A stretch of 64,000 bases of DNA from Eledone cirrhosa (lineage: Eukaryota): assembly GCA_964016885.1 (NCBI GenBank), contig OZ024743.1, positions 363,444,001-363,508,000 of the forward strand, written 5' to 3'. A program made the position numbers and the translations under genes. This document shows, one piece after another, positions 3,187 through 52,930 of the stretch. The first letter of the stretch is position 1, and every line of letters begins with the position of its first letter. The notes beneath the pieces were generated by a model. The model was not told the DNA's origin and ran no database searches. It saw only the letters and a list, made by a program, of their open reading frames with translations.

Positions 3187-3228
<42 letters not shown>

Positions 3229-3782
3229 TTATCAACCACAACGGACTACACACACATATATATATATATATAAACGTTTGAATTTGTAAAGTCAAATAAT
3301 GCAGGTATGGACATAGAATTAAAAAAATGCAAATGCAAAAGATATTGTTGACAATTAGTCTTTTACCTTAGATTTATTTAAATGTCCTCAATTTTCGAGA
3401 TAATATCTCTTCTTCGGAGGGAAGTAAAGCGGTTAAACCAGTGTTCTAAATAGCTTGCCAAGTCATGCTGACAGGAAATGGTATAGAGTATCTGTTCTAT
3501 CTCTAATTTCAAAGAGTTAAGGTTAGGTGGATAAAGAGTAGTTACCCTTTAAAAGGTTTTTTTTTGTACATGTCTGTTTAAGTGTGTGGGAGAATGCGTG
3601 AATGTGTAAGTATGTATGTGTGTGTGTGTGAGTGTGAGAAGATATGTCTATACGTAAATGTGGGGGATAGATGTTATCTCGTGTTAGAACTGGTCTTTGT
3701 GTGTGTATGTGTGTGTGTGAGAGAGAATAAGTGGAGGTGTAAGCGTGTGTGTGGGGGTGTAAGTATGGGGCTAGATGCTCTA

Positions 3783-4279
3783 TCAAGGTATAAATTGGGT
3801 GTTGAGTTCTAGTCTATAATTGGTTGGTGGTTGTGTTTTGTCTATAATTAGTGCTTCCTTAATTCTAAGATTGCCGAGGTTTCTTTCCTTAGTTTCTATC
3901 CTAACTGTTATGGTTTTGTAGGTGTTTTTGCATTTCATTAGGTGTTTCTTAAATGAGGAAGCGTTAGTATTGAGGTGTTCTTTTATTCTTATGTGGAGTG
4001 GTCTGGTGGTGCTACCTACGTAGAAGTTGCTGTATTTGTCGCACTCTAATCTGTATACGACGTAAGCCTGGTGGCATAGGTCTGTGTCGTTGATGGGGCA
4101 GTTGGCTAGCCTGCAGCGGTTGTCATGTCTGGTGGAGTGTCTTTTGGTTGGCTGTCCGCGTAGAGAAGGTGCTGAGTGGGCCAGTTGGATATCTAGTCCC
4201 TCTCGTCTGATAGCTCTGCAGATGGCTGTTGTTGTTTCGTCACTGAAGTGTGAGTGCCTCGGGTGTGGTGTCCTCTGTT
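3783..4279 (-). pseudogene. Inverted copy of the PLE GIY-YIG endonuclease
   Basis: VVYRLECDKYSNFYVGSTTRPLHIRIKEH in ORF 3783..4508. Confidence 0.9.
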
Positions 4280-4973
4280 TATATTTCAGATCGGCCCTCC
4301 CAGCCGGTGCTAAGTTTGGATACATAAGGAACGAACTACACGTACCCGGAACAAATGCACCGACGCTAGAGACCGAGACACACACACCACACATTTCCTG
4401 GAAGTACTCAAACTGAACGGATACACGACATCCACTACAAACCGTGCCAGAAAGAACAGAGGACACCACACCCGAGGCCCTCACACTTGTTTCTTGAAGC
4501 TCCCACACTTCAGTGACGAAACAACAACAGCCATCCGCAGAGCTATCAGACGAGAGGGACTAGATATCCAACTGGCCCACTCAGGTCCTTCTCTGCGCGG
4601 ACAGCTAACCAAAAGACACTCCACCAGACATGACAACCGCTGCAGGCTAGCCAACTGTCCCATCAACGACGCAGACCTATGCCACCAGGCTTACGTCGTG
4701 TACAGACTAGAGTGTGACAAATGCAGCAACTTCTACGTAGGTAGCACCACCAGACCACTCCACATAAGAATAAAAGAACACCTCAATACTAACGCTTCCT
4801 CATTTAAGAAACACCTAGTGAAATGCAAAAACACCGACAAAACCATAACAGTTAGGATAGAAACTAAGGAAAGAAACCTCGGCAATCTTAGAATCAAGGA
4901 AGCACTAATTATAGACAAAACACAACCACCAATCAATAATAGACTAGAACTCAACACCCAATTTATAACTTGA
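4280..4973 (+). pseudogene. PLE RT thumb end, linker and GIY-YIG endonuclease (5'-truncated, frameshifted)
   Basis: FLEVLKLNGY thumb motif; VVYRLECDKCSNFYVGSTTRPLHIRIKEH...FKKH (GIY-YIG with CCHH residues); C-terminal KEALII...PPINNR. Confidence 0.9.
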
Positions 4974-5035
4974 TAGAGCATCTAGCCCCATACTTACACA
5001 CCCACACCCACCCACACACACGCACGCACACACAC

Positions 5036-5090
<55 letters not shown>

Positions 5091-5408
5091 TACACCTCCA
5101 CTTATTATCTCTCACACACACACATACACACACAAAGACCAGTTCTAACACGAGAGAATATCTATCCCCCACATTTACGTATAGACATATCTTCTCACAC
5201 TCACACACACACACACATACTTACACATTCGCGCATTCTCCCACACACTTAAACAGACATGTGCAAAAAAAACCTTTTATAGGGTGACTACTCTTTATCC
5301 ACCTAACCTTAACTCGTTGACATTAGAGATAGAACAGATACTCTATACCATTTCCTGTCAGCATGACTTGGCAAGCTATTTAGAACACTGGTTTAACCGC
5401 TTTACTTC

Positions 5409-5443
5409 CCTCCGAAGAAGAGATATTATCTCGAAAATTAAGG
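5409..5443 (+). ncRNA. Minimal hammerhead-like motif in PLE 3' end (variant CCGAAGA core); mirror copy at 3386-3421 (-)
   Basis: cct CCGAAGA a-gagat-att-atctc GAAA ATTA agg: stem I cct/agg, stem II gagat/atctc, palindromic AATT stem III. Confidence 0.55.
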
Positions 5444-5598
5444 ACATTTAAATAAATCTAAGGTAAAAGACTAATTGTCAACAATATCTTTTGCATTTGC
5501 ATTTTTTTAATTCTATATCCATACTTGCATTGTTTGGCTTTACAAATTCAAACGTTTATACCTCATTACACAATGGTTCAAGTGAACTATAACTTCCT

Positions 5599-5640
<42 letters not shown>

Positions 5641-8600
5641 TCTTAGTTATGCCAGTCTCTAAAATTCAAATTCTCCGTTTTTCTCTCTGATTTTCAATTA
5701 TTTATATTTACATGTTTTTAATATGTCTCAATCTGTTGGCTGTTGGACCCTTCCTAAAAACTAACCTTCTCCTAAAGTTACCCATTTCTCGCCCACCCGC
5801 CCCCACTCACCACCATTGCTATATGGTCCAATCAGAACTCACCGGCTTTAGTAAGTTCTCTAACAAATCAGTATAGCAAAGCTACCACCTCGGTTACTAC
5901 TCCTTAAGTTTAGACCTGTTTGATGGGGTGACTGCGGAAATTTGAAAAGTATGAGCACTCAATGACAATGTCACAGTTAAAGATAAATTCCTCTCCCGCT
6001 GCAAGACGAGAAAACAAGGACCCTCTTTATTTCAGACACGGATGACCAACAAAATTCCGTCTCCTACACCCCACCCCACCCCCTCCAACCCATCCATCCC
6101 ACCCTACCAACTTCAGAGGTGGTACCATGAACGTAGGCACATTGAAAGGTCGCTCAAATGAGGTTGTAGAGATGCTTGAACGTAAAGAAGTTGATGTTTG
6201 TTGTATTCAAGAGACTAGGTGGAGAAGGGGGTCTGCCAGATTCATCGTGGGTAAAAAAACGATGCTATAAACTTTTCTGGGTGGGAAATGACAACGGACT
6301 GAGTGGAGTAGGAATTATGTTAGCTGAAAAATGGGTCGATAAGGTAATCGACGTAAATAGAGTAAATGACAGAATAATTAAAATAAGGCTAGTTCTAAAT
6401 AGAACTACCGTGACAATAATATCCGCTTACGCACCCCAATCTGGTCTACCTGACGTTATAAAGGACAGGTTCTATGAGACGTTAATGCACACTACCTCCC
6501 AAATAACCAACAGCGACTACCTAATTATTGCTGGCGATCTAAACGGCCACGTTGGACAACATAGTGATGGCTATGATGTAATCGATGGAGGCTATGGGGT
6601 TAGAAATAGAAATGAGGAAGGTTTCAGAATCCTGGAATTCTGTGACGTCAATAACCCAACTATCTGTAACACAAACTTCAAAAAACGTGAAAACCACTTG
6701 ATCACCTATAGATCAGGGGAACACGCCAACCAGATAGATTATATCCTTACTAGAAGACGGGACAAAGTGTCTGTTGTAAACACTAAACCCCTCCCCCGTA
6801 AAGAATACACCTCCCAACATAGCCTAGTAGTTAGTGACCTCACAGTCAGGACTAGACGTACTCTACGACAGAGAAGGACTAACTTGAGGAGAAGAATATG
6901 GAAGTTGAAGGTCCCCATAGCCAGTGACAAATTTAAAAGTTTATTACTTGATGCCTTTGACAATAAGGAAAAGCAATTAGAGACGTGCGATATAGAGCAA
7001 CAGTGGGAATTCCTGAAAGTGAACCTGCTGAAAGCAACAGATGAAATCTGTGGCTGGAGCAGACCTATTGGCAGGAGGAGAGTAACTTGGTGGTGGAACA
7101 GTAAGGTGGAGGAGACAATCAAGGCAAAATAGCAGGCTTGGAAAGTATGGTGGGATGGAGGAAGTAGAGAGCACTATCAAGTGGTCAGGATAAAAGCTAG
7201 GAGACAAGTGTACCTTGCAAAAAGGGAAGCAGAGGATAGAAAGTTCAAGCATGTTCTACAACGCGGAACAAAAACGCGAGGTGTTCAGGATTGCTAGACA
7301 ACGTGTCAAGAAAAACCGTGATATTGTCAGGGAGAAGTGTGTCTGTAATGACAACGGTGTACTTGCCCTCACTGATGCTGATGAGAAGATAGCTTGGAAG
7401 TGTCACTACGAGAGCCTATTAAATGAGGAGAATAAGTGGGAAAAAAATAGTCTGCCCCAAATCGATCCAATAGAAGGACCAGCGGTGCAAGTTAAAGGTA
7501 GTATAATAAGTAAGGTAATCAAAGATATGAAGACAGGCAAGGCAGCTGGGCCTTCGGAGATAGTTGCTGAGATGTTGAAGGCATCTGAAATGGTGGGACA
7601 TACTATGGTCACCCGTATAGTTAACCAAGTAATACAGAATGGGGTCATACCAAAAGACTGGCGTAGCAGCATCATCATTAACTGCTACAAGGGTAAAGGA
7701 GATGCTCTAGATAGAGAAAACTATAGAGACATTAAGTTAGTTGACCAGGTCATGAAGGTGACAGAAAGAGTTATAGCGCAACTAATCAGAGAGCAAATTG
7801 ATCTAGATGAAATGCAGTTTGGGTTTGTGTCAAGTAAAAGTACCACAGACGCTCTTTTCCTTGTACAACTACAAGAGAAGTACCTAGCTAAAAGTAAACC
7901 CCTCTACTTAGCTTTTGTAGACCTGGAAAAAGCCTTTGACAGAGTCCCCCGCTCCATTATCTGGTGGGCTCTTAGAAAACTAGGTGTAGATGAATGGCTT
8001 GTGAGAGTTAGAGAAGCTATGTATAATGAAACAGTCAGTAAGGTTAGAATTAACAATGAATATTGTGAAGAATTTAATGTAAAAGTTGGTGTTCACCATG
8101 GCTATGTCCTTAGCCCCCTCATATTTATTATTGCCCTTCAGGCTATAACAGAGGAGTTCAAGACCGGCTGCCCATGGGAACTCCTATACGCAGATGATCT
8201 AACGCTCATAGCTAAATCAATGGCTGAACTAGAAAAGAAATTCCAAACATGAATGCATGGCCTAGAATCAAAAGGCCTTAAAGTTAACTTGTCTAAGACT
8301 AAAGTCCTAGTTTGTAGAAAGGAAAATAAGGCACAGGTACCCTCAGGGAAATGGCCTTGCTCAGTGTGTAGGAAAAGAGTAGGCAGAACTTCAATGTTAT
8401 GTCCCAAATGCAAAGTATGGGTACATAAAAGATGTAGTGGGATCACAGGTAAACTATCTAAGAACGTAGATTTTATATGTGGCCGATGCTCAGGTGCAAT
8501 AGGTAGCAAGTGTCCACAGGATACTAGTCCCTTTTATTGCCCAGATGGTTCTATAGAAATAGTAGACACTTTCCGTTACCTGGATGACGAAATCAGCAGT

Positions 8601-9567
8601 GGTGGAGGGTGCTCTGAAAGTACAGTAGCCAGAGTCAGAACGGGATGGAAAAAGTTCAGAGAGCTTATACCGCTGTTGGCCACAAAAGGTTTCTCCCTAA
8701 AAATGAAAGGCAGATTGTATGATGCTTGTATACGAACAGCAATGCTACATGGCAGTGAGACATGGGCATTGCGTGCAGAGGACCTGCGTAGACTGGAAAG
8801 GAACGAAACATGCATGCTCCGTTGGATGTGTAATAGTAATATACGTGAACGGCAAAGCATAAATGAGCTAAGTGAGAAATTAGGAATAAGAGGGATCAGA
8901 TGCTGTTTACTCGAGAGAAGACTACGTTGGTATGGCCACTTGATGCGCATGACAGACGACAGCTGTATAAAAAAGTGCAGGGCGATCAAAATTGATGGTA
9001 CTTACAGAGTAGGTAGACCCAGAAAAACCTGGGACGATCTGATAAATTCCGACCTTACACACTTGAACCTCTCTAAGACAATGTCACTGGACCGAGATCT
9101 TTGGCGCTACGCAGTAATACAGAAGACCCGCCTTGCCTATGTACAAAGCGAAACCTACAGTCAGTAGGCACCTCTTAACCAAATATACACCCCAATCCAC
9201 TACCCCTACCCTATCCTCCCACTCCCACCAACACCACCCTCTCTCTATAAAGTTGGTACCACAACATCCAGTCCAAATAAATGAGATAAATGAGATAGAG
9301 ATCGTGTAGGTGTCACGAGAAAAAAACACACAGTCTACGCTGTAATGTGGTCGTGTAGGTAACACGGTAAAAAGTTCCCAGTTCCACACTGTAAATGTGG
9401 TTGGTGTTAGGAAGGGCATCCAGTCGTAGAAAATCTGCCAGATAGTCCTATATGAGCGAGACACGGTCACCCGAGCAACCTTGCCTCAAGTGGGACAACT
9501 CCCGTCTAACCCATGCTAGCGTGGAAAGTGGACGTTAAACGAGGATGATCATGATCATGATGATGAT
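5641..9567 (+). mobile_element. Near full-length RTE-clade LINE with a disrupted ORF
   Basis: APE (MNVGTL..., CIQETRW, ISAYAPQ, AGDLNGHVG, QIDYIL), RT (FVDLEKAFDRV, LLYADDL), C-terminal RRLRWYGH, 3' tail gacgttaaac(gat)n. Confidence 0.95.
6113..9167 (+). pseudogene. RTE ORF (APE endonuclease, reverse transcriptase, PHD-type finger) broken by frameshifts and stops
   Basis: ORFs 6176-7132, 7215-8252 and 8253-9167 are collinear pieces; in-frame TGA at 8250 where Trp is expected. Confidence 0.9.
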
Positions 9568-10944: not shown

Positions 10945-11420
<476 letters not shown>

Positions 11421-11447
11421 CATACATATACATATATACATATATAC

Positions 11448-11531
<84 letters not shown>

Positions 11532-11541
11532 TTATATTATA

Positions 11542-11588
<47 letters not shown>

Positions 11589-11616
11589 TATATATTTATA
11601 TATATATATATATATG

Positions 11617-11704
<88 letters not shown>

Positions 11705-11710
11705 TGTATG

Positions 11711-11778
<68 letters not shown>

Positions 11779-11929
11779 TATATTCACATATATATCGCTA
11801 TTTCAGAGCATTTATTCCAATTTCTAATTTCTGCCGGACCGGCAACCGCTCTTTCAAACCAGTTCATGTACACAGCTAAGTATTCTATAAGTCTCTAGCT
11901 GTGTCATTCTCGATAAAAGCACTGGATAT

Positions 11930-11972
11930 GTAGTCCTGAAGATTTCTAATAAGAATGAAACGCGTAGATTAC
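11930..11972 (+). ncRNA. Minimal type I hammerhead ribozyme, copy 1
   Basis: gtagtc CTGAAGA tttctaataagaat GAAA CGCG TA gattac; stem I is extended by a 16-bp perfect helix (11906-11921/11979-11994). Confidence 0.85.
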
Positions 11973-12239
11973 TTCCCTTGCTTTTATCGAGAATCTAATT
12001 GTAATACGTGACGTATTCTATTCTATAGCGATTAGGTCTTCAAAATGTTTATTATAAACATACAGAATATTTTCGAATATTCTATGTCTATATTCACATA
12101 TATATCGCTATTTCAGAGCATTTATTCCAATTTCTAATTTCTGCCGGACCGGCAACCGCTCTTTCAAACCAGTTCATGTACACAGCTAAGTATTCTATAA
12201 GTCTCTAGCTGTGTCATTCTCGATAAAAGCACTGGATAT

Positions 12240-12282
12240 GTAGTCCTGAAGATTTCTAATAAGAATGAAACGCGTAGATTAC
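12240..12282 (+). ncRNA. Minimal type I hammerhead ribozyme, copy 2
   Basis: Same sequence as 11930-11972, offset by 310 bp. Confidence 0.85.
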
Positions 12283-12446
12283 TTCCCTTGCTTTTATCGA
12301 GAATCTAATTGTAATACGTGACGTATTCTATTCTATAGCGATTAGGTCTTCAAAATGTTTATTATAAACATACAGAATATTTTCGAATATTCTATGTCTA
12401 TATTCACATATATATCGCTATTTCAGAGCATTTATTCCAATTTATA

Positions 12447-12559
<113 letters not shown>

Positions 12560-12584
12560 ATCTTTCTCTCTCTCTCTATATATA

Positions 12585-13010
12585 TATAGGAAAAGGTTCA
12601 GGACCTTGACGACAGAGCTCATGCTGTTTCGACGGCTATTTCTGAGTCCAGAAATAGCCGTCGAAACGTCTTGAGCTCTGCGTCGGGGTCCTGAACCTTT
12701 TCCTATTACCCCCTTTACTACCCAAAGTATCGAGTATTCTGGTGCGTTATGGTCCGCCTGATTCCTTACCACACTTCCTCCGTTATATATATATAGGAAA
12801 ATGTTCAAGACCCCGACGGCAGAGCTGAAGCCGTTTCGACGGCTATTTCTGGACTAAATTGAATTTAGTTCAGAAATAGCCGTGGAAACGGCTTGAGCTC
12901 TGTCGTCGGGATCTTGAACATTTTCCCATTACCCACTCTACTATCCTAAGTATTGAGTATTCTGGTGCGTTATGGTCCACCTGGTTTCTTACCACACTTC
13001 CTTCGTTATA
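12585..13010 (+). mobile_element. Two tandem copies of a hairpin-plus-tail element; related copies at 60640-60780 and 60828-60960
   Basis: taggaaaagg...ccttttccta ~120-bp fold-back followed by the tail gagtattctggtgcgttatggtcc...accacacttcc, twice. Confidence 0.75.
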
Positions 13011-13018
13011 TATCATTA

Positions 13019-14006
13019 TCTATAAAAGGCAGATTGTTGTTGTTGTTGTGTGTGTGTGTGCATGTTCCATGTTTATACATTTGCACAATTTCAAACCGAT
13101 TGACTCAAACTCTGTAAAAAAGTTGTAAATGGTCTAAGTTAGGTCAACGACTATTTATTTCATTCAAACACTTACGGAAATAATCGATAAAACTAAATAC
13201 ATGACGCTTTAACCCTCTAATACAATCTGATTTACTCTCTCTACCCACCTTAAAATTCGATAAAACTACATACATGCTTACACACTTCCTTTAGGAACGC
13301 CGAAGAGAGAGAGAAGAGAGGGAGAGGGAGAGAGAGAGAGAAAACGTTTGTTTTTGAATTTGGAACGGTCAAACATTTATTTACTTCAATGACAAAGAGA
13401 ACTTATTACATTTTATACGAAACAACAATTATTCAACAACAACAAAAATAGCGATAAATCTTTTTTAAAACCTCTCAACGAACGTGGAAGAAAGAAGTAT
13501 CAGTTTATTTACTATACACAATAATATCCTCTATGAGGTCACTAAGCCTGCTAGAAACAGCAGCTAACTCTCCCCCATATCACACCACTCCCTACTGTCT
13601 TAAATTTAGAAAACACATATCCTCTATGAGGTCACTAAACCTGCTAGAAACAGCAGCTAACTCTCCCCCATATCACACCCCTCCATACTGTCTTAAATTT
13701 AGAAAACACACATTAGACAACCATGCAGAACAACTCCATCGCAGCTCTGTTTTTCGGCTGGCATCGTCTACGCGCGTGTTGCGCAAGTACTGTGAAACAA
13801 TAAATTTCAACACTTCTTTGCACAGAGATAATATCCATAGGCGAAACTACAATTGTCACTGCTGGCGCAGCTCCTGCTTCGGCAGTCCAGGTCTGCAATT
13901 CATTCACCCAGTGCCTGGCAGACAAATAAGTGCTGCCATAAAATGGGTGGTGCAACCTAACTTTGGTAACTTACTGACCCCGAGCAACGCCGGGCTTTAA
14001 TGCTAG
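13019..14006 (+). mobile_element. Non-autonomous Helitron-like element with an internal ~95-bp tandem duplication (13524-13710)
   Basis: 5' TCtataaaagg; 3' hairpin cccgagcaacgccggg then CTAG|T. Confidence 0.6.
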
Positions 14007-15770: not shown

Positions 15771-16083
15771 AATTAAGTTAAACCCCTGGTAATCTACGAC
15801 GAATTTTTTTTATAAGCACAAAATGTAGACACCATCCCCTGGCCAATGTATTCCGTACTTCTCTGTACCGTTTGAGAAAGGAGGGATAAACATTAGTACA
15901 TTAAATGACATAAATAGAGTAGGGAAGGATATAGTTACTAGTTTAGAAATAGATAAGTACACAAACCCATATGTCCCTCTGACGCCTAGATTCTCTCTTA
16001 AGGATCACAAATGTAACTTTAATTAAAGCCCCTCTATTAGACTAATATGTCCCTCTACATCTGATATAGGTAAGATTAGTAAA

Positions 16084-16845
16084 GTGATCCTCGATAGAGT
16101 ACTACTGGAGCTTAATAGAAAGGCTAAGATCTGCCTCTGGAGCAACACCGACCAGCTCATAGATTGCTTCACCGAGTTGCCTGATAAAGCGACCCTGAAG
16201 TTCATCCACTTTGACATAGATAGTTACTACGCCTCTAACTCCCCCATACTCTTAAATAAGGCATTCATCTTAGCTAAATCTAACACTAGCCCCACTAAAA
16301 AAGAAATAGACATAGTTCTAGCGGCGCGTAGAACCATTATCCAGTTCGAAGGCTCCCACTGGACCAGAACCAACCGTCCTGATAACTTCGATATCACGAT
16401 GGGGTCCAGTGACTCGGCGCAAGCAACCGATCTGGTCGGAATATACCTCCTCCATAAGCTTAGGGACGCTCTACAAGGAGGTATATATAGAGACGACGCC
16501 CTGTTTACCGTTAGGAACCATAGCCCCCGTAGAATAGATAACCTTAACAAACATATACACAGGTTCTTCAAGTCATACGGCCTATCCGTAACTATAGACC
16601 TCAACCACCAGGTTGTCAACTTCCTGGACGTGACCCTGGAGTTGAGTACGGGCCTATACAAGCCATACCATAAGCCTGGGGAGAGCCTTTCTTATATGAA
16701 TTATGCCTCCAACCACCCTAAGCAGACTCTCAACTCCATAGTCTATAGCATCTCACATAGGATCTCGAGGCTCTCCGCCAATGAGGATATCTTCAACCAA
16801 GCGGCAGATTACTACAATAAGGGCCTTGATAAGCGCCGGTTTTAA
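16084..16845 (+). pseudogene. PLE reverse transcriptase fragment
   Basis: FDIDSYY, MGSSDSA, IYRDD, FLDVTL, SNHP motifs. Confidence 0.9.
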
Positions 16846-17060
16846 CCGACGAATCTCCTAAATCCCTAATGATAGCTCCAGAAACCACCCCTTTCATAAG
16901 ACTAACGTTATAGTAAGCCATACCTATAACCGATCACGCGGCGGCTTTGAAAGAGTCGGGTGTAATAGTATAGAAAATCGCACTAAAAAACACGGCCACA
17001 ATGTTAATTACACTAGCGATAGTATAGGTAGCTTACCACACAATAAATATCACGACCCCG

Positions 17061-18208
17061 GTGACAGTGACCACTGTAGTCTACTTGAATTATTCCCATA
17101 CTATAAGTTCAACAAAGGCGATGGCCTACTACCAACGCCTTCCAACCAACATCTTCCTATACATAAACGTAGCAGAAGGAAAACGAGTGCACCCGAGCAT
17201 AAAGCGAAAGGGACATGTAACGAGCTACAGCGCAATAACATGCATAAGAACCGTCACCCGTAGCAAACGTACAAAGACACGTAATCGCCACCGTAACGTC
17301 CTATGGTTCCATCCCCCCTACTCTTGGAGTGTGCCCTCCGACATACCCCGGATATTCTTCGAAGCCTTAGAGAAGAAGTTCCCACCCAACCATAAGTATA
17401 GGAAATTCCTTAATAGGAACAATATAAAAATATCCTTCTCTACTACTCATAACCTAGCAGACATCATAGGAACAACTAATCACGGTAAGATAACCAAGAC
17501 ACAGCGCCTTAGCAGCGACGCACCTATACCTGACAACAACTATATCGGCCTTAACGACTCCCTAGCAGCATTCAATAGTGCTGGCAACAGCCACTACAGA
17601 CGCAACCAACATAACCGCGACATGACTTGGGAATATGCAGGTGACCCGCACGGGTCACCTGACGGCAACGGAAGACGCTGCTGCGTGCGGAATAATAATG
17701 GTACCACCCCGCACACAACGGGTTATAATGGTGCTAATGACAGGTGTAGGAGCGTAGGTAACAACGTAGATAGCAATAATAATAGCCTTACCTTGGGAAC
17801 TAGAAGGGACCGCGACCGAAATTGCAACTGCCGCGACAGGGGAGGCTGCCCCCTTAGGGGTAACTGCCTAACTGATAGGGTTATATATAGGTGCAGCGTA
17901 ACTAGCCATAATAGCGTTAAACATTATATAGGGGCTTCCTCTGGCCCGTTCAAAATTAGATTTCGAACACTTCTGCACTCTTTCGCAAACAAGAAACTAA
18001 GACACTCCACTTCGCTCGCGAGCTACATCACAGCATTAAGACTCAAACATCAGTTTCTACATGCACTGGGAAATTGTCGGCAGAGCTGCTCCGTACAACT
18101 TCTTTGCCTCATGGAGCTCTAAAATATCATTAAGGCACCCCACGAGCTCATCAACAGCAGAGCTGAAACGACGATAAGCTGTACACACCGCTTAAAAATA
18201 TCCTACTG
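17061..18208 (+). pseudogene. PLE linker and GIY-YIG endonuclease, frameshifted near 18045
   Basis: WFHPPYS, KKFPPNHKYRKFLNRNNIKISFST, CNC..CPL.G.C, VIY...YIG. Confidence 0.85.
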
Positions 18209-19036: not shown

Positions 19037-20525
19037 GTGGTTACACAACAGTTAGTTCACCATACCGAGAACAATTGGTTCACCTTAGCGGATCTTCAGC
19101 TCGGGATGTGCATGGTTATAGAAACAGGAAGGACAACCGTACGAACGCGCATGCACAGAAACTCGGTCACTTCACACAGGCAATACTAGACTGCGTGCGA
19201 GAGGTGTAAGGGAGATAATTGCGAAAGTCCGGAAAGTTTTTAGGTTGAAAATAAGATTAAAATAAAATTAAAAATAAAATTACAAAGAATCAGTCCGGGG
19301 ACTTGTAGTTATGCAATAGATGTTTAGTGACGTGTGGACAACGTGTGAAAAATTCACTTCTCGTGTTTAGGCAATCACTATTGCGCAATCTCTTTAGAAT
19401 AGTTATTCGTTCGTCAATACATAAGCCACACGACGGATTTCCCCTTGCGTATGGCTTGGACTTAGTGATGGCTTTCTCTTGGATGGAGTAGCCTATATTT
19501 GAGTCCTTGAGGGACCATACGTGGCTCGCGAGTTTCGTGGATGAACGTCTGTCCGGGTATCTGAAGGTAGACTGGTGGTTCAGGAAACGCTCCTTGAATC
19601 GGCCCTCCGCCATGCCCACATAGGATTTGACCTCCTGTGGTTCGTTTGGTCGGTTGGAAGTGACCACAGCTTCATAGATTACAGCTGGTGTGTTGCATTG
19701 CTGTTGAAGGGGGCAAGCTTCAGGCTTGTGTCGGTTAAAGATGGAGTGGTATTTATGACATATGGGGAAGTGTCTATCTAAGAGGGCTAGACATTTTTTT
19801 CCTACATTGGTTTTAACGTTGAGTGAGAAGGGAGGAGAGAACCAGATAGTTTGTCTATTGTTGCGCTTACTTTTCTTAAAGGTGTTGTTGCTAGTGGGAG
19901 AGTAAGTGATAGGTTGTGAGAAGCCGTTGTTAGCCAACGCCGTGTTATAGTAGGGTGCCGTCCTGTCAAAGATAGCCTTATTAGAGGGGAGGTTTGAGAT
20001 TCTAGTACTGATATTCTTAACGAAGTTTCTAAAAACGGTGGGAGGGTGGCATGAGTCCTTGTGAATGTAATTAAGTTTCTTGTTTAGCTTATGGAAGGGT
20101 CTGTGGGTGTGTGTGCGAAGGTCTAAATTAATGACTAAGAAATCTGCGCTAGACAGGTTGGTGGCTACTGTTATCCTAAGGCCTAACTCATTGAAGGTAG
20201 AAGCTAAGTCTTTTTTAAACCGGTCGAGGTCGTGACCACTTTTATGGCTCGATAAAGTCAGTCCATCGTCACGGTATATTCCCGTGTGGAAGTCCGGGAA
20301 TCTAACACGTAATATGTCTAAGATAAAAGGCCAACCAAGTCACATACGTCAGCACTGTCAAACGAATCCCATGGAGACGTCGAACAGGTCTGAAAATGTA
20401 GATTTCTTTGCCCAGGCTACTCCGTCGTTGAAGAGGAGGGTTTTCCGGCAGTGCGCGATGATTTCCCTGTCTAAACCATCGACGGTGTTATAAGTGGTAG
20501 CGAAGTCCAACGCTTTGTACACCTT
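19037..20525 (-). mobile_element. Second Penelope-like retroelement (Hydra-clade-like), 5'-truncated, including its 3' terminus
   Basis: FDVSMG, GIYRDDGL (~20260-20283), WFSPPFS, ACPLQQQC, VIYEAVV...SYVGMAEGRFKERF, LNTRSEFFTRCPH. Confidence 0.9.
19065..19104 (-). ncRNA. Minimal HHR in PLE 3' terminus
   Basis: Minus strand ccgag CTGAAGA tccgctaaggt GAAC CAATTG TT ctcgg; consensus with the 10729-10767 copy restores GAAA. Confidence 0.7.
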
Positions 20526-27978: not shown

Positions 27979-28336
27979 GGGCCGATGGCGAGAAAAAAAT
28001 TTAGGTAGTGGATGTAAGGGTGCTGGTGGTCGTGGTGATAATGGAGGTGGTTGTGGTGGTGGTGGCGGCCATGTTAGTACGACAGTAATGGTTATAGAGT
28101 CGATGTTAATGGTTGTGATAGTGTTGGGTACTGTGGTGGTTGTAGAGGGAGTAATAATTGTAGTTATGGTGTCGTTTGTGAGGAGGCTTGATGGTGATGG
28201 TTGTCGTGGTGGTGGTGGTGGTGGAGTACGGCGGTTTTACTGGTATTACTGATTTTGATAGTCCTCTAGTATGAGTGTTGTGATGGTTGTGGAGGGGATT
28301 AGTTGTAGTAGTGTTAATATAGTGTTGTTGTTGTTG

Positions 28337-31300
28337 TTTGTGGTGGTGGTGATGGTAGAGTTTGTGGTGGTGGTGATGGTAGGGTTTGTGGTGGTGGTGA
28401 TGGTAAAGTTTGTGGTGGTGGTGATGGTAGAGTTTGTGGTGGTGGTGATGGTAGAGTTTGTGGTGGTGGTGATGATGGTAAAGTTTGTGGTGGTGGTGAT
28501 GGTAAAGTTTGTGGTGGTGGTGATGGTAAAGTTTGTGGTGGTGGTGATGGTAGAGTTTGTGGTGGTGGTGATGGTAAGGTTTGTGGTGGTGGTAATGGTA
28601 AAGTTTGTGGTGGTGGTGATGGTAGAGTTTGTGGTGGTGGTGGTGGTAGAGTTTGTGGTGGTGGTGATGGTAGAGTTTGTGGTGGTGGTGATGGTAGAGT
28701 TTGTGGTGGTGGTGATGATGGTAAAGTTTGTGGTGGTGGTGATGGTAAGGTTTGTGGTGGTGGTAATGGTAAAGTTTGTGGTGGTGGTGATGGTAGAGTT
28801 TGTGGTGGTGGTGATGGTAAAGTTTGTGGTGGTGGTGGTGGTAAAGTTTGTGGTGGTGGTGATGGTAAAGTTTGTGGTGGTGGTGATGGTAAAGTTTGTG
28901 GTGGTGGTGATGGTAAAGTTTGTGGTGGTGGTGATGGTAAGGTTTGTGGTGGTGGTAATGGTAAAGTTTGTGGTGGTGGTGATGGTAGAGTTTGTGGTGG
29001 TGGTGGTGGTAGAGTTTGTGGTGGTGGTGATGGTAAGATTTGTGGTGGTGGTAATGGTAAAGTTTGTGGTGGTGGTGATGGTAGAGTTTGTGGTGGTGGT
29101 GGTGGTAGAGTTTGTGGTGGTGGTGATGGTAAAGTTTGTGGTAGTGGTGATGGTAGAGTTTGTGGTGGTGGTGATGGTAGAGTTTGTGGTGGTGGTGATG
29201 GTAGAGTTTGTGGTGGTGGTGGTGGTAAAGTTTGTGGTGGTGGTGATGGTAAGGTTTGTGGTGGTGGTGATGGTAAAGTTTGTGGTGGTGGTGATGGTAG
29301 AGTTTGTGGTGGTGGTGATGGTAGAGTTTGTGGTGGTGGTGATGGTAGAGTTTGTGGTGGTGGTGGTGATGGTAAAGTTTGTGGTAGTGGTGATGGTAGA
29401 GTTTGTGGTGGTGGTGATGGTAGAGTTTGTGGTGGTGGTGATGGTAGAGTTTGTGGTGGTGGTGATGGTAGAGTTTGTGGTGGTGGTGATGGTAGAGTTT
29501 GTGGTGGTGGTGATGGTAGAGTTTGTGGTGGTGGTGATGGTAGAGTTTGTGGTGGTGGTGGTGATGGTAAAGTTTGTGGTAGTGGTGATGGTAGAGTTTG
29601 TGGTGGTGGTGATGGTAGAGTTTGTGGTGGTGGTGATGGTAGAGTTTGTGGTGGTGGTGATGGTAGAGTTTGTGGTGGTGGTGATGGTAGAGTTTGTGGT
29701 GGTGGTGGTGGTAAAGTTTGTGGTGGTGGTGATGGTAGAGTTTGTGGTGGTGGTGGTGATGGTAAAGTTTGTGGTAGTGGTGATGGTAGAGTTTGTGGTG
29801 GTGGTGATGGTAGAGTTTGTGGTGGTGGTGATGGTAGAGTTTGTGGTGGTGGTGGTGATGGTAAAGTTTGTGGTAGTGGTGATGGTAGAGTTTGTGGTAG
29901 TGGTGATGGTAGAGTTTGTGGTGGTGGTGATGGTAGAGTTTGTGGTGGTGGTGATGGTAGAGTTTGTGGTGGTGGTGGTGATGGTAAAGTTTGTGGTGGT
30001 GGTGATGGTAGAGTTTGTGGTGGTGGTGATGGTAAAGTTTGTGGTAGTGGTGATGGTAGAGTTTGTGGTGGTGGTGGTGATGGTAAAGTTTGTGGTGGTG
30101 GTGATGGTAGAGTTTGTGGTAGTAGTGATGGTAGAGTTTGTGGTGGTGGTGATGGTAGAGTTTGTGGTGGTGGTGATGGTAGAGTTTGTGGTGGTGGTGA
30201 TGGTAGAGTTTGTGGTGGTGGTGATGGTAGAGTTTGTGGTGGTGGTGATGGAAGAGTTTGTGGTGGTGGTGATGGTAGAGTTTGTGGTGGTGGTGATGGT
30301 AAGGTTTGTGGTGGTGGTAATGGTAAAGTTTGTGGTGGTGGTGATGGTAAAGTTTGTGGTGGTGGTGATGGTAGAGTTTGTGGTGGTGGTGATGGTAGAG
30401 TTTGTGGTGGTGGTGGTGATGGTAAAGTTTGTGGTAGTGGTGATGGTAGAGTTTGTGGTGGTGGTGATGGTAGAGTTTGTGGTGGTGGTGATGGTAGAGT
30501 TTGTGGTGGTGGTGATGGTAGAGTTTGTGGTGGTGGTGATGGAAGAGTTTGTGGTGGTGGTGATGGTAGAGTTTGTGGTGGTGGTGATGGTAGAGTTTGT
30601 GGTGGTGGTGATGGTAGAGTTTGTGGTGGTGGTGATGGTAGAGTTTGTGGTGGTGGTGGTGGTAAAGTTTGTGGTGGTGGTGATGGTAGAGTTTGTGGTG
30701 GTGGTGGTGATGGTAAAGTTTGTGGTAGTGGTGATGGTAGAGTTTGTGGTGGTGGTGATGGTAGAGTTTGTGGTGGTGGTGATGGTAGAGTTTGTGGTGG
30801 TGGTGGTGATGGTAAAGTTTGTGGTAGTGGTGATGGTAGAGTTTGTGGTGGTGGTGATGGTAGAGTTTGTGGTGGTGGTGATGGTAGAGTTTGTGGTGGT
30901 GGTGGTGATGGTAAAGTTTGTGGTAGTGGTGATGGTAGAGTTTGTGGTGGTGGTGATGGTAGAGTTTGTGGTGGTGGTGATGGTAGGGTTTGTGGTGGTG
31001 GTGGTGATGGTAAAGTTTGTGGTAGTGGTGATGGTAGAGTTTGTGGTGGTGGTGATGGTAGGGTTTGTGGTGGTGGTGGTGATGGTAAGGTTTGTGGTAG
31101 TGGTGATGGTAGAGTTTGTGGTGGTGGTGGTGATGGTAAGGTTTGTGGTAGTGGTGATGGTAGAGTTTGTGGTGGTGGTGATGGTATAGTTTGTGGTGGT
31201 GGTGATGGTAGAGTTTGTGGTGGTGGTGATGGTAAAGTCTGTGGTGGTGGTGATGGTAAAGTTTGTGGTAGTGGTGATGGTAGAGTTTGTGGTGGTGGTG

Positions 31301-34300
31301 ATGGTAAAGTTTGTGGTGGTGGTGATGGTAAGGTTTGTGTTGGTGGTGGTGGTGATGGTAAAGTTTGTGGTGGTGGTGGTGATGGTAAAGTTTGTGGTGG
31401 TGGTGGTGATGGTAAAGTTTGTGGTGGTGGTGATGGTAAGGTTTGTGGTAGTGGTGATGGTAGAGTTTGTGGTGGTGGTGATGGTAGAGTTTGTGGTGGT
31501 GGTGGTGGTGGTGGTGATGGTAAAGTTTGTGGTGGTGGTGGTGATGGTAAAGTTTGTGGTGGTGGTGATGGTAGAGTTTGTGGTGGTGGTGATGGAAGAG
31601 TTTGTGGTGGTGGTGATGGTAAAGTTTGTGGTGGTGGTGATGGTAAGGTTTGTGGTAGTGGTGATGGTAGAGTTTGTGGTGGTGGTGATGGTAGAGTTTG
31701 TGGTGGTGGTGATGGTAAAGTTTGTGGTGGTGGTGATGGTAAGGTTTGTGGTAGTGGTGATGGTAAAGTTTGTGGTGGTGGTGATGGTAAAGTTTGTGGT
31801 GGTGGTGATGGTAAAGTTTGTGGTGGTGGTGATGGTAAAGTTTGTGGTGGTGGTGATGGTAGAGTTTGTGGTGGTGGTGATGGTAGAGTTTGTGGTGGTG
31901 GTGATGGAAGAGTTTGTGGTGGTGGTGATGGTAAAGTTTGTGGTGGTGGTGATGGAAGAGTTTGTGGTGGTGGTGATGGTAAGGTTTGTGGTAGTGGTGA
32001 TGGTAGAGTTTGTGGTGGTGGTGATGGTAGAGTTTGTGGTGGTGGTGATGGTAAAGTTTGTGGTGGTGGTGATGGTAGAGTTTGTGGTGGTGGTGATGGT
32101 AAAGTTTGTGGTGGTGGTGATGGTAGAGTTTGTGGTGGTGGTGATGGTAGAGTTTGTGGTGGTGGTGATGGTAAAGTTTGTGGTGGTGGTGATGGAAGAG
32201 TTTGTGGTGGTGGTGATGGTAGAGTTTGTGGTGGTGGTGATGGAAGAGTTTGTGGTGGTGGTGATGGTAAAGTTTGTGGTGGTGGTGATGGTAGAGTTTG
32301 TGGTGGTGGTGATGGTAGAGTTTGTGGTGGTGGTGATGGTAAAGTTTGTGGTGGTGGTGATGGAAGAGTTTGTGGTGGTGGTGATGGTAGAGTTTGTGGT
32401 GGTGGTGATGGAAGTGTTTGTGGTGGTGGTGATGGTAGAGTTTGTGGTGGTGGTGATGGTAAAGTTTGTGGTGGTGGTGATGGAAGAGTTTGTGGTGGTG
32501 GTGATGGTAGAGTTTGTGGTGGTGGTGATGGTAAAGTTTGTGGTGGTGGTGATGGTAAAGTTTGTGGTGGTGGTGATGGTAAAGTTTGTGGTGGTGGTGA
32601 TGGTAGAGTTTGTGGTGGTGGTGATGGTAAAGTTTGTGGTGGTGGTGATGGAAGAGTTTGTGGTGGTGGTGATGGTAGAGTTTGTGGTGGTGGTGATGGT
32701 AAAGTTTGTGGTGGTGGTGATGGTAAGTTTGTGGTGGTGGTGATGGTAAAGTTTGTGGTGGTGGTGATGGTAGAGTTTGTGGTAGTGGTGATGGAAGAGT
32801 TTGTGGTGGTGGTGATGGTAGAGTTTGTGGTGGTGGTGATGGTAGAGTTTGTGGTGGTGGTGGTGATGGTAGAGTTTGTGGTAGTGGTGATGGTAGAGTT
32901 TGTGGTGGTGGTGGTGATGGTAAAGTTTGTGGTGGTGGTGATGGTAGAGTTTGTGGTGGTGGTGATGGTAGAGTTTGTGGTGGTGGTGATGGAAGAGTTT
33001 GTGGTGGTGGTGATGGTAGAATTTGTGGTGGTGGTGATGGTAGAGTTTGTGGTGGTGGTGATGGTAGAGTTTGTGGTGGTGGTGTTGGTGGTGGTGATGG
33101 TAAAGTTTGTGGTGGTGGTGGTGATGGTAAAGTTTGTGGTGGTGGTCATGGTAGAGTTTGTGGTGGTGGTGATGGTAGAGTTTGTGGTGGTGGTGATGGT
33201 AGAGTTTGTGGTGGTGGTGATGGTAAGGTTTGTGGTGGTGGTGATGGTAAAGTTTGTGGTGGTGGTGATGGTAGAGTTTGTGGTGGTGGTGGTGGTGGTG
33301 GTGATGGTAAAGTTTGTGGTGGTGGTGGTGATGGTAAAGTTTGTGGTGGTGGTGGTGATGGTAAGGTTTGTGGTAGTGGTGATGGTAGAGTTTGTGGTGG
33401 TGGTGATGGTAGAGTTTGTGGTGGTGGTGATGGTAGAGTTTGTGGTGGTGGTGATGGTAAGGTTTGTGGTGGTGGTGATGGTAAAGTTTGTGGTGGTGGT
33501 GATGGAAGAGTTTGTGGTGGTGGTGATGGTAGAGTTTGTGGTGGTGGTGATGGTAGAGTTTGTGGTGGTGGTGATGGTAAGGTTTGTGGTGGTGGTGATG
33601 GTAAAGTTTGTGGTGGTGGTGATGGTAAAGTTTGTGGTGGTGGTGATGGTAGAGTTTGTGGTGGTGGTGGTGGTGGTGGTGATGGTAAAGTTTGTGGTGG
33701 TGGTGGTGATGGTAAAGTTTGTGGTGGTGGTGGTGATGGTAAGGTTTGTGGTAGTGGTGATGGTAGAGTTTGTGGTGGTGGTGATGGTAGAGTTTGTGGT
33801 GCTGGTGATGGTAAAGTCTGTGGTGGTGGTGATGGTAAAGTTTGTGGCAGTGGTGATGGTAGAGTTTGTGGTGGTGGTGATGGTAAGGTTTGTGGTAGTG
33901 GTGATGGTAGAGTTTGTGGTGGTGGTGATGGTAGAGTTTGTGGTGGTGGTGATGGTAAAGTTTGTGGTGGTGGTGATGGTAAGGTTTGTGGTAGTGGTGA
34001 TGGTAGAGTTTGTGGTGGTGGTGATGGTAAAGTTTGTGGTGGTGGTGATGGTAGAGTTTGTGGTGGTGGTGGTGATGGTAAGGTTTGTGGTGGTGGTGAT
34101 GGTAAAGTTTGTGGTGGTGGTGATGGTAGAGTTTGTGGTGGTGGTGATGGTAGATTTTGTGGTGGTGGTGATGGTAAGGTTTGTGGTGGTGGTGATGGTA
34201 AAGTTTGTGGTGGTGGTGATGGTAAAGTTTGCGGTGGTGGTGATGGAAGAGTTTGTGGTGGTGGTGATGGAAGAGTTTGTGCTGGTGGTGATGGTAGAGT

Positions 34301-37300
34301 TTGTGGTGGTGGTGGTGATGGTAGAGTTTGTGGTGGTGGTGATGGTAGAGTTTGTGGTGGTGGTGATGGTAAGGTTTGTGGTAGTGGTGATGGTAAGGTT
34401 TGTGGTGGTGGTGATGGTAAAGTTTGTGGTGGTGGTGATGGTAAAGTTTGTGGTGGTGGTGATGGTAAAGTTTGTGGTGGTGGTGATGGTAGAGTTTGTG
34501 GTAGTGGTGATGGAAGAGTTTGTGGTGGTGGTGATGGTAGAGTTTGTGGTGGTGGTGATGGTAGAGTTTGTGGTGGTGGTGGTGATGGTAGAGTTTGTGG
34601 TGGTGGTGATGGTAGAGTTTGTGGTGGTGGTGATGGTAAGGTTTGTGGTAGTGGTGATGGTAGAGTTTGTGGTGGTGGTGGTGATGGTAGAGTTTGTGGT
34701 GGTGGTGATGGTAAAGTTTGTGGTGGTGGTGATGGTAGAGTTTGTGGTGGTGGTGATGGTAGAGTTTGTGGTGGTGGTGATGGTAAGATTTGTGTTAGTG
34801 GTGATGGTAGAGTTTGTGGTGGTGGTGGTGATGGTAGAGTTTGTGGTGGTGGTGATGGTAAGGTTTGTGGTAGTGGTGATGGTAGAGTTTGTGGTGGTGG
34901 TGATGGTAGAGTTTGTGGTGGTGGTGATGGTAAAGTTTGTGGTGGTGGTGATGGTAGAGTTTGTGGTGGTGGTGATGGTAAAGTTTGTGGTGGTGGTGGT
35001 GGTAAGGTTTGTGGTAGTGGTGATGGTAGAGTTTGTGGTGGTGGTGGTGATGGTAGAGTTTGTGGTGGTGGTGATGGTAAGGTTTGTGGTAGTGGTGATG
35101 GTAGAGTTTGTGGTGGTGGTGATGGTAGAGTTTGTGGTGGTGGTGATGGTAAAGTTTGTGGTGGTGGTGATGGTAGAGTTTGTGGTGGTGGTGATGGTAA
35201 AGTTTGTGGTGGTGGTGGTGGTAGAGTTTGTGGTGGTGGTGATGGTAAGGTTTGTGGTGGTGGTGGTGGTGATGGTAGAGTTTGTGGTGGTGGTGATGGT
35301 AGAGTTTGTGGTGGTGGTGATGGTAGAGTTTGTGGTGGTGGTGGTGATGGTAAAGTGTGTGGTGGTGGTGATGGTAGAGTTTGTGGTGGTGGTGATGGTA
35401 AAGTTTGTGGTGGTGGTGATGGTAGAGTTTGTGGTGGTGGTGGTGATGGTAGAGTTTGTGGTGGTGGTGATGGTAGAGTTTGTGGTGGTGGTGATGGTAG
35501 AGTTTGTGGTGGTGGTGATGGTAAAGTTTGTGGTGGTGGTGATGGTAGAGTTTGTGGTGGTGGTGATGGTAGAGTTTGTGGTGGTGGTGATGGTAAAGTT
35601 TGTGGTGGTGGTGATGGTAAAGTTTGTGGTGGTGGTGGTGATGGTAGAGTTTGTGGTGGTGGTGATGGTAGAGTTTGTGGTGGTGGTGATGGTAAAGTCT
35701 GTGGTGGTGGTGATGGTAAAGTTTGTGGTGGTGGTGGTGATGGTAGAGTTTGTGGTGGTGGTGATGGTAGAGTTTGTGGTGGTGGTGATGGTAAAGTCTG
35801 TGGTGGTGGTGATGGTAAGGTTTGTGGTGGTGGTGATGGTAAAGTCTGTGGTGGTGGTGATGGTAAGGTTTGTGGTAGTGGTGATGGTAGAGTTTGTGGT
35901 GGTGGTGATGGTAAAGTCTGTGGTGGTGGTGATGGTAAGGTTTGTGGTGGTGGTGATGGTAGAGTTTGTGGTGGTGGTGATGGTAAAGTCTGTGGTGGTG
36001 GTGATGGTAAAGTGTGTGGTGGTGGTGATGGTAGAGTTTGTGGTGGTGGTGGTGATGGTAGAGTTTGTGGTGGTGGTGATGGTAAAGTCTGTGGTGGTGG
36101 TGATGGTAAGGTTTGTGGTAGTGGTGATGGTAGAGTTTGTGGTGGTGGTGATGGTAGAGTTTGTGGTGGTGGTGGTGATGGTAGAGTTTGTGGTGGTGGT
36201 GATGGTAAAGTTTGTGGTGGTGGTGATGGTAGAGTTTGTGGTGGTGGTGATGGTAGGGTTTGTGGTGGTGGTGATGGTAAAGTTTGTGGTGGTGGTGGTG
36301 GTAGGGTTTGTGGTGGTGGTGATGGTAGAGTTTGTGGTGGTGGTGATGGTAGAGTTTGTGGTGGTGGTGGTGATGGTAAAGTGTGTGGTGGTGGTGATGG
36401 TAGAGTTTGTGGTGGTGGTGATGGTAGGGTTTGTGGTGGTGGTGATGGTAGAGTTTGTGGTGGTGGTGATGGTAGAGTTTGTGGTGGTGGTGGTGATGGT
36501 AAAGTGTGTGGTGGTGGTGATGGTAGAGTTTGTGGTGGTGGTGGTGATGGTAAAGTGTGTGGTGGTGGTGATGGTAGTGTTTGTGGTGGTGGTGATGGTA
36601 GAGTTTGTGGTGGTGGTGATGGTAGAGTTTGTGGTGGTGGTGATGGTAAAGTTTGTGGTGGTGGTGATGGTAAGGTTTGTGGTAGTGGTGATGGTAGAGT
36701 TTGTGGTGGTGGTGATGGTAGAGTTTGTGGTGGTGGTGATGGTAAAGTTTGTGGTGGTGGTGATGGTAGAGTTTGTGGTGGTGGTGATGGTAAAGTTTGT
36801 GGTGGTGGTGATGGTAAAGTTTGTGGTGGTGGTGATGGTAGAGTTTGTGGTGGTGGTGATGGTAAAGTTTGTGGTGGTGGTGATGGTAAAGTTTGTGGTG
36901 GTGGTGATGGTAGAGTTTGTGGTGGTGGTGATGGTAGAGTTTGTGGTGGTGGTGGTGATGGTAAAGTGTGTGGTGGTGGTGATGGTAGAGTTTGTGGTGG
37001 TGGTGGTGATGGTAAAGTGTGTGGTGGTGGTGATGGTAGTGTTTGTGGTGGTGGTGATGGTAGAGTTTGTGGTGGTGGTGATGGTAGAGTTTGTGGTGGT
37101 GGTGATGGTAAAGTTTGTGGTGGTGGTGATGGTAAGGTTTGTGGTAGTGGTGATGGTAGAGTTTGTGGTGGTGGTGATGGTAGAGTTTGTGGTGGTGGTG
37201 GTGATGGTAGAGTTTGTGGTGGTGGTGATGGTAAAGTTTGTGGTGGTGGTGATGGTAGAGTTTGTGGTGGTGGTGATGGTAGAGTTTGTGGTGGTGGTGA

Positions 37301-52886: not shown

Positions 52887-52930
<44 letters not shown>

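Follow-up and report, generated by a model that had tools for sequence, protein, structure and literature searches.

A 310-bp tandem insert in a TA microsatellite

The window, that is, the whole stretch of 64,000 nucleotides that was analysed, contains at positions 11773-12443 a 671-bp insert bounded by (TA)n on both sides, with a left tract of about 470 bp (11300-11772) and a right tract of 92 bp (12444-12535), neither of which is assigned to a strand. On the plus strand, the insert is made up of unit 1 (11773-12082), unit 2 with the same sequence (12083-12392) and a partial third unit (12393-12443), a terminal redundancy of 51 bp that is the same as the first 51 bp of the unit. Letter comparison gave 310+310+51 bp with 100% identity between the units, and TRF reported a period of 310, 2.2 copies and 100%, confirming the identical 310-bp tandem described in an earlier interpretation made from the letters alone (the sequence-only reading). 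The copy number is 2.16, the repeat is not extendable on either side, and its ends are sharp.

The unit has a GC content of 33.5% and is non-coding, the longest ATG frame in the closed 310-bp unit being 30 aa, with nothing longer on either strand. No ORF was found beside the insert and no RT or GIY-YIG ORF in or beside 11773-12443, and neither a tRNA gene nor an LTR organisation is present at the insert, which is a pure tandem. A promoter scan of the sequence with a bacterial model stayed at chance level. Both junctions of the insert lie inside (TA)n, where a target-site duplication is unreadable. The insert at 11773-12443 likely represents a copy of an animal retrozyme that is abundant; retrozymes are small mobile elements of a known kind, and this one is predicted to cut itself into RNA circles of 310 bases.

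Anatomy and class of the hammerhead ribozymes

Two type I hammerheads of the same sequence were located on the plus strand, at 11930-11972 and 12240-12282, so that each unit carries one, as the sequence-only reading had claimed and as both a pattern and a helix descriptor found in the two units. Stem I has 6 bp, GTAGTC/GATTAC (11930-35/11967-72 in the first hammerhead), and its 5' arm is followed in both units by CTGAAGA, the stem II sequence TTTC-TAATAA-GAAT, GAAA, the CGCG loop and TA, with GUA as the cut triplet. The core elements CUGANGA, GAAA and UH stand in order around three helices with an open-ended stem I, the arrangement of a type I hammerhead, and all catalytic bases are present in both copies. 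Cleavage is predicted on the plus strand after A11966 (11966-11967), at position 17 of the hammerhead consensus, and after A12276, at the consensus position 310 nt from the first site; the predicted 310-nt monomer (11967-12276) lies between both predicted cuts.

A loose hammerhead pattern gave five matches in the window against 0.30 expected, and a helix-bearing descriptor gave five matches in the window against two in 20 shuffled windows together. No minus-strand hammerhead was found in the unit by descriptor search. In Rfam, nothing in the whole window reached the gathering score; the best weak match was Hammerhead_HH9, with 17 bits against a cut-off of 52 (E 0.29), and the UAU/U internal loop and the UAAUAA loop of the insert, candidate partners of a tertiary contact between loop 1 and loop 2, align to the HH9 model at this score of 17 of the 52 bits needed.

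The base of stem II (11943/11956) is a U-U in place of the standard 10.1-11.1 pair, and stem II therefore has three pairs plus the U-U, while stem III is one A-U pair under the CGCG tetraloop. A U-U at the base of stem II is described as tolerated in hammerheads (PMC3088659), and axolotl HHR_Amex2 is described as carrying one at the base of helix II (PMC7229834). With a mismatch at the start of stem II and a single pair in stem III, the ribozyme of the insert is probably weak. The canonical metazoan type I form is described with a 6-bp helix I, a four-position helix II, a 1-bp helix III and a palindromic tetraloop, and the minimal form of Penelope-like elements (min-HHR) with a helix II of 6-8 bp, a helix I of 4-5 bp or less, an extra base between positions 9 and 10.1 and G10.1-C11.1 (PMC4209133). 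With a helix I of 6 bp, a helix II of three pairs plus the U-U and no extra base after position 9, the insert ribozyme is by its sequence of the canonical metazoan form, not of the minimal form of Penelope-like elements, and the term minimal used in the sequence-only reading does not agree with these helix sizes.

The exact 20-base motif of the ribozyme had no match in the viral, metagenome and prokaryote collections, and a relaxed motif had none in the viral collection. The relaxed motif matched three metagenome contigs (L001-L003, one related set), in which 29 of 31 core bases agree with the insert, including the U-U, CGCG and GUA, with no other homology. The U-U at the base of stem II is present in all three, found with a search pattern that left both positions free. 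None of the six stem I pairs of the insert is kept in L001 and L002, where both sides have changed, and in L003 the 5' arm of stem I is replaced. The comparison of these sequences shows the core on an exchangeable helix, which amounts to two independent ribozymes in effect and is not a statistic. In L001, the hammerhead at 930-1037 has nearly the same core and lies behind a tRNA-like A/B-box stretch recognised by eye, in which ARAGORN found no tRNA; the frame upstream of it is presumably scramblase-like. This stretch of L001 is probably a SINE-like hammerhead element of another organism.

Copies and end points of the family in public runs

Twenty-four public runs were listed, 20 of which hold 57-93% of the unit's 31-letter words, and four of the 24 were compared with one 310-bp unit in detail. 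There is no RNA run among the listed holders, and they have no bearing on expression. In run X1, which holds 93% of the words, 713 contigs (contigs, not loci) align to one unit, 350 of them at 99% identity or more, 146 at 95-99%, 93 at 90-95% and 124 under 90%. The X1 variants are at 11940, 11943, 11950 and 11951, all within the ribozyme, where they affect a free core position, the U-U and loop 2, and a standard pair at the stem II base is found in X5, X20 and part of X1. Summed contig depths are neither allele frequencies nor copy numbers, and do not show which allele is commonest. The head-to-tail joint, from unit end to unit start, is present in X1, X5 and X20, that is, in three of the four runs compared. 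X5 has one contig of 340 bases (310+30) that forms a closed loop without a branch at a depth of 25.9; the loop is explicable by tandem DNA as well as by an RNA circle.

An assembly artefact beside the hard-to-assemble (TA)n tract could produce a tandem with 100% identity and microsatellite flanks, and the tandem at this locus is known from the assembly alone. Such an artefact is nevertheless very improbable, given the head-to-tail joint in three public runs, the exact period, the sharp ends and the allele set that both units share at the family-variable positions 11940, 11943, 11950 and 11951.

Loose ends were taken from eight of 56 rows, six of them from X1 and the other two from other runs. 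Among these rows, four X1 ends enter TA-rich sequence, at 11996 on the 5' side and at 12105, 12120 and 12136 on the 3' side, and the insert's own 3' end, 12133 in register, lies beside the X1 3' ends. The X1 end at 12162, one of the better supported (12 contigs), leads into non-TA sequence, the X1 row at 11997 is a variant, and the one at 12105 possibly reflects growth of the (AT)4 within the unit itself. Among these rows, the 3' ends at 12105, 12120 and 12136, taken with the insert's own at 12133, occupy a zone of about 35 bases where the predicted circle is least paired (mean unpaired 0.66). Because X1 contigs have several end points, some of them in (TA)n, and because the joint occurs in three of four runs, the 310-bp unit is real and mobile. 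The sequence-only reading had suggested a look at other loci with different permutations, and the 713 X1 contigs show several end points. Fixed ends in all copies and an assembly artefact were among the findings that it named as speaking against it; the first is contradicted by the X1 ends at 11996, 12105, 12120, 12136 and 12162 among the eight of 56 rows, and the second is made very improbable by the joint in three of the four runs.

In some X1 contigs the match is confined to 12057-12162, at about 81-86%, and the sequence then continues differently. A single X1 contig of low depth (2.65), to which no weight is given, departs from the unit precisely at 11966 and rejoins it 45 bases on, with five other letters between. 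The 51-bp redundancy of the insert was also considered as a target-site duplication and rejected, since X5 shows the 310-bp unit closed on itself and the ends of other copies lie at different places.

No end lies at the cut site among the eight of 56 rows, and the insert in the window crosses the cut site twice. Since the insert ends avoid the cut site, they fit copying from a circle or an uncut multimer; a cut linear monomer would be unable to template an insert that crosses the site, whereas a circle or an uncut multimer could. The sequence-only reading went further and attributed the 2.16 copies to reverse transcription more than twice around a circle or along a multimer. The circle or multimer fits, but two turns are not demonstrated by the copy number, as a 1.16-copy insert could gain units by recombination. 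Specifically, the 2.16 copies do not separate circle or multimer copying from later local duplication, because recombination between the 51-bp end repeats would add whole units.

It is therefore a reasonable, if minority, possibility that the same family inserted here without ever going twice round a circle, and that the starting point was an insert of 1.16 units, or a copy of an uncut multimer, to which unequal recombination or slippage between the 51-bp end repeats later added a unit. A hammerhead element of 1.13 units in the same window is in line with this route, local amplification is the model of a recent preprint (10.64898/2026.07.22.740005), and perfect identity of the units is expected from it too. 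Even 1.16 units, however, would need more-than-unit copying across the cut site, and since both routes give identical units, nothing favours duplication over a second turn. Local duplication is compatible with the retrozyme interpretation; its sole consequence is that the copy number no longer speaks for a circle.

Foreign holders of the unit

Seventeen runs with other organism labels (X4-X20) hold 57-77% of the unit's words, and two of them (X5 and X20) were examined in detail. Taken together, the 20 holders among the 24 listed runs, with 57-93% of the 31-letter words, carry 18 organism labels from 17 studies, and the units of X5 and X20 are near-identical to that of the insert (four and five differences) with the standard pair at the stem II base. 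These data would suit a spread of the unit between species as a viroid-like RNA or retrozyme, of which the genomic copies would be footprints. In its full form, one 310-nt hammerhead circle with the stronger ribozyme would occur in many unrelated organisms, as an animal retrozyme that spreads in viroid-like RNA form or has recently jumped horizontally, and that lands in TA microsatellites via resident Penelope-like enzymes. Both the general and the full form are highly unlikely. X5 and X20 have one flank-less contig each (depths 25.9 and 3.3), the trace to be expected when a highly abundant repeat is carried over from another library. In X20 the contig holds one full unit at a depth of 3.3, with both of its ends at the single GANTC site of the unit (11991), and it continues into foreign sequence whose last letters are GATC; the junction looks like that of a Hi-C ligation product, and hence like DNA. 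In a raw Hi-C run of organism B (X24), 1,938 million letters contained 0 reads of the unit, a result that carries no weight as a test. Carry-over of an abundant repeat is the likeliest reading of the foreign holders, two of the 17 having been examined, and single flank-less units in foreign runs are a caution for circle searches in public contigs.

Predicted folding of the monomer and the dimer

Hammerhead 1 is part of a long hairpin on the plus strand (11906-11994, and the same at +310), which comprises a 16-bp helix (11906-21/11979-94), a 2x2 loop, a 3-bp helix, the UAU/U internal loop and stem I. The 16-bp helix is perfect, a 101-nt fold has a z of -5.75, and the ribozyme is thereby placed on a 25-bp extended stem I. 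An 8-bp hairpin with a UUCG loop is present at 12064-12083 on the plus strand (AGAATATT-TTCG-AATATTCT), and the 5' end of the insert (11773, equal to 12083 in the unit register) is the last base of this hairpin. The helix extending stem I and the TTCG hairpin had both been pointed out in the sequence-only reading and are borne out. The linear fold of the predicted 310-nt monomer is -73.4 (z -4.9), and the circular fold of the predicted 310-nt circle is -68.7 (z -4.8), with 58% of bases paired and none of 100 shuffles as stable. Much of the stability of the circle fold derives from the single long hairpin. In the ensemble, stem II has a pairing probability of 0.15-0.17. The hammerheads, called intact in the sequence-only reading, are so in their core bases, but stem II has the U-U at its base and this low pairing.

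The self-complementary word ACGCGT at 11960-11965, which occurs also at 12270-12275 on the plus strand, would make a 6-bp shared stem III of a double hammerhead, and the duplex of two ACGCGU words has a predicted energy of -7.5 kcal/mol. In constrained folds of the whole insert, the best fold (-167.1 kcal/mol) consists of two local hairpins with closed cores, while opening one monomer to the active shape gives -160.4 kcal/mol, both monomers -153.7 kcal/mol and the double hammerhead -160.7 kcal/mol, 6.4 kcal/mol above the best fold; these energies leave out tertiary contacts and Mg. Both stems I are local in the best fold with a probability of 0.997, and swapped with one of 1e-5. The double hammerhead requires each core to use the stem I of the other unit, so that all 25 pairs of the long arm change partner, and the local hairpin would presumably form first during transcription. 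As modelled, the double hammerhead opens two sites at the energy cost of a single one, without being the ground state. The double hammerhead proposed from CGCG in the sequence-only reading is thus possible, but not preferred and no better than one active monomer, and the insert is not the ready template for dimeric cleavage that it was thought to be, as the very 16-bp extension that was praised must first swap between units in a 25-bp strand swap. Loop-to-loop kissing without a stem I swap was considered as an active dimer and rejected by reasoning, since the base at the cut has to continue into the stem I that belongs to its own core.

The axolotl ribozymes HHR_Amex1 and HHR_Amex2 are described as cleaving 6% and 22%, respectively, alone and much better as dimers (PMC7229834), and one of nine Xenopus dimer elements is reported to have cleaved in vitro (preprint 10.64898/2026.07.22.740005). 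Judged by the modelled folds and by analogy with these cases, useful cleavage of the 11773-12443 copy has about an even chance. The family may have been, or may still be, a retrozyme while this particular copy is dead or nearly dead, its ribozyme without useful cutting and no circle being formed. This is a serious possibility, somewhat short of even. It is favoured by the U-U at the stem II base together with the 1-bp stem III and the stem II pairing probability of 0.15-0.17, by the standard pair in X5, X20 and part of X1, and by the eight of nine Xenopus dimers that did not cleave (10.64898/2026.07.22.740005). On the other side, the same U-U in all three metagenome matches (one related set) and in the second hammerhead of the window makes it a recurring natural form, and no catalytic base is missing.

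Penelope-like relics and a second hammerhead element in the window

Decayed Penelope-like sequence lies in a long inverted arrangement (92-93%) at 3190-5639, inside which is a GIY-YIG frame (4314-4973; Pfam E 1.2e-6), and further Penelope-like frames, in which YRDD and a Cys-rich linker precede a GIY-YIG-like word, are at 16027-18122 and 19290-20339. The descriptor search found no hammerhead in these relics, no DNA is shared between the 310-bp unit and the three relics of the window, and a protein search with the relic at 19293-20339 gave two relatives, which do not fix its clade. A (TA)n bias has been reported for Naiad elements and proposed for Neptune elements, and that of Naiad is linked to the Cys-rich linker, which is present too in Neptune and Nematis (Craig et al. 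2021). It is the choice of (TA)n as target and the co-occurrence in the window that point to a Penelope-like helper for the insert.

A second hammerhead element is present on the plus strand at 59620-60243, also in (TA)n, with a 551-bp unit and a 73-bp end repeat (98.6%), that is, 1.13 copies. It has one type I hammerhead at about 59878-59954, with an 8-bp stem I, a long stem II starting with U-U and a 5-bp stem III, and its first 7 bases are repeated just upstream within the TA tract. This element has no DNA likeness to the 310-bp unit, and the insertion of two unrelated hammerhead families in the same manner speaks for a common route.

Penelope-like elements also offer a different account of the insert itself, as what remains, in the form of a partial tandem truncated at its 5' side, of the terminal repeat (pLTR plus tail) of an autonomous element; its hammerhead would then serve the parent and release no free 310-nt circle. 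Type I hammerheads in pLTRs, partial tandems with a tail of 30-40 bp and a preference for microsatellites are all described for these elements (PMC4209133; Craig et al. 2021), and 24 of 57 Xenopus retrozyme families are reported to match known repeats, nearly all of them Penelope-like ends (10.64898/2026.07.22.740005). The X1 contigs that match only 12057-12162 at about 81-86% and then diverge fit this account as well. It is improbable, however, as the 310-bp unit is self-closed without a branch in X5, the ribozyme is canonical and not of the minimal pLTR type, and the insert has neither an ORF beside it nor a match to the Penelope-like relics of the window.

Several other repeats were observed in the window. 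A fold-back element with a 390-bp inverted repeat (94%) lies beside (TA)n at 52916-53304, and both of its arms carry a hammerhead-like CTGAAGA...GAAA TATATA TA (53024 minus, 53196 plus); it is possibly the inverted end of a Penelope-like insertion. To the right of the 310-bp tandem, and again starting in TA, an element with an imperfect palindrome of roughly 130 bases and an 80-base tail is present at 12577-13024 in two copies, arranged head to tail and 83% alike; related pieces occur at 60629-60970. A broken LINE-like element with endonuclease and RVT_1 frames is present at 6170-9167 on the plus strand, and the LINE and Penelope-like relics mark the host as an animal, seemingly octopus-like. 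A 16-kb GT-rich satellite (28336-44405) consists of about 670 copies of a 24-bp unit with a GC skew near 1, and faces a 1.9-kb CA-rich array of opposite skew (46109-48011).

Proposed origin and life cycle of the insert

The insert is very probably a 2.16-unit copy of a non-coding animal non-LTR retrozyme, lying in a TA microsatellite and belonging to a multi-copy family whose transcripts would cut, circularise to 310 nt and be copied back by a borrowed, probably Penelope-like, RT. In the proposed cycle, RNA reading through the insert would be cut after 11966 and 12276, a step that for this copy is about as probable as its failure. With a 1-bp stem III and a U-U at the stem II base, cutting would be weak as long as the ribozymes act singly, and would improve once the units swap their stem I arms and the two ACGCGU words form one 6-bp stem III. 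The monomer would then probably be closed by a host ligase of the RtcB type, by analogy with the coral, mussel and axolotl families, a step proposed for the family. With slightly less assurance, an endonuclease-bearing Penelope-like element would nick (TA)n, prime in the AU-rich and mostly unpaired 12105-12140, copy more than one unit length and stop close to where the UUCG hairpin begins to pair. Either copying went round a second time or the 51-bp end repeats recombined later, and one of these would have supplied the second full unit. The sequence-only reading is partly supported and right in kind, in that it described a hammerhead tandem that would release a 310-nt monomer and belong to a multi-copy family with more than one end point.

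Comparison with known systems

The insert was compared with parts of the literature on hammerhead elements (PMC7229834, 10.64898/2026.07.22.740005, PMC4209133, 10.1101/2021.04.23.441226, PMC7761336 and PMC3088659). The life cycle put forward in the sequence-only reading is the already published model for retrozymes, and the kind of element is known (PMC7229834). No report of the 310-bp element was found in titles and abstracts of the cephalopod, hammerhead and Penelope literature, and the PMC7229834 supplement of further invertebrate retrozymes may hold it. Similarly, TA targeting or a clustered priming zone for retrozymes was not found in the parts of the literature compared, whose supplements may hold it, and the enzyme mobilising animal retrozymes is there described as still only a candidate. 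One more animal retrozyme matters little as such. Its modest use is that the family is young and abundant, has (TA)n as its target and has 3' ends that seem to be gathered within 35 bases, and the second unrelated hammerhead element with the same insertion pattern adds to the use of this genome. An end map of all copies would directly probe the Penelope-helper and circle-template models, and the natural alleles with U-U or a standard pair at the stem II base would show whether the copies that spread cut better.

Penelope-like pLTR hammerheads resemble the insert in being of type I and in their partial tandems and microsatellite targets, and dimer-dependent cleavage is a feature described for them (PMC4209133; Craig et al. 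2021; 10.64898/2026.07.22.740005). The insert differs from Penelope-like elements in having no RT or GIY-YIG ORF attached, no extra base after position 9, a short helix II and a helix I of 6 bp; a descent of retrozymes from Penelope-like pLTRs is argued in the preprint (10.64898/2026.07.22.740005). With viroids and viroid-like circular RNAs, the insert shares a length of about 300 nt, the lack of coding, a structured predicted circle and the double-hammerhead option. It differs from viroids as a multi-copy repeat integrated in DNA, with a hammerhead on one strand only and a predicted circle that is 58% paired and not rod-like. The unit having no minus-strand hammerhead and its copies being integrated DNA, the features of a viroid-like replicating RNA are lacking.

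Metazoan non-LTR retrozymes are described as having units of 170-400 nt, a type I hammerhead, a GC content under 50%, no LTR features, a self-paired circle, a target-site duplication that exceeds 4 bp where there is one and, as the defining biological feature, linear and circular monomer RNA (PMC7229834), with sizes of 220-245 nt in coral, 350-390 nt in mussel and 330/350 nt in axolotl (Cervera and de la Pena 2020, PMC7229834). The insert is like them in its tandem unit within 170-400 nt (310 bp, two full units, two ribozymes), each unit with one canonical type I hammerhead, in its GC content under 50%, in its lack of an ORF or LTR, in its many dispersed copies (713 X1 contigs with several different loose ends) and in its self-paired predicted circle with the ribozyme free to fold. 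It differs in being a new sequence known here from DNA alone, in its (TA)n insertion, which the part of PMC7229834 consulted does not describe for retrozymes, and in its 25-bp extended stem I. Among the axolotl ribozymes described there, HHR_Amex1 has a one-pair helix III and a palindromic tetraloop like the insert, and HHR_Amex2 shares its U-U at the helix II base. Compared by description and not by sequence, the insert joins the two weak features that HHR_Amex1 and HHR_Amex2 have one each. By its sequence and predicted fold features, the insert belongs to the metazoan non-LTR retrozymes (PMC7229834).
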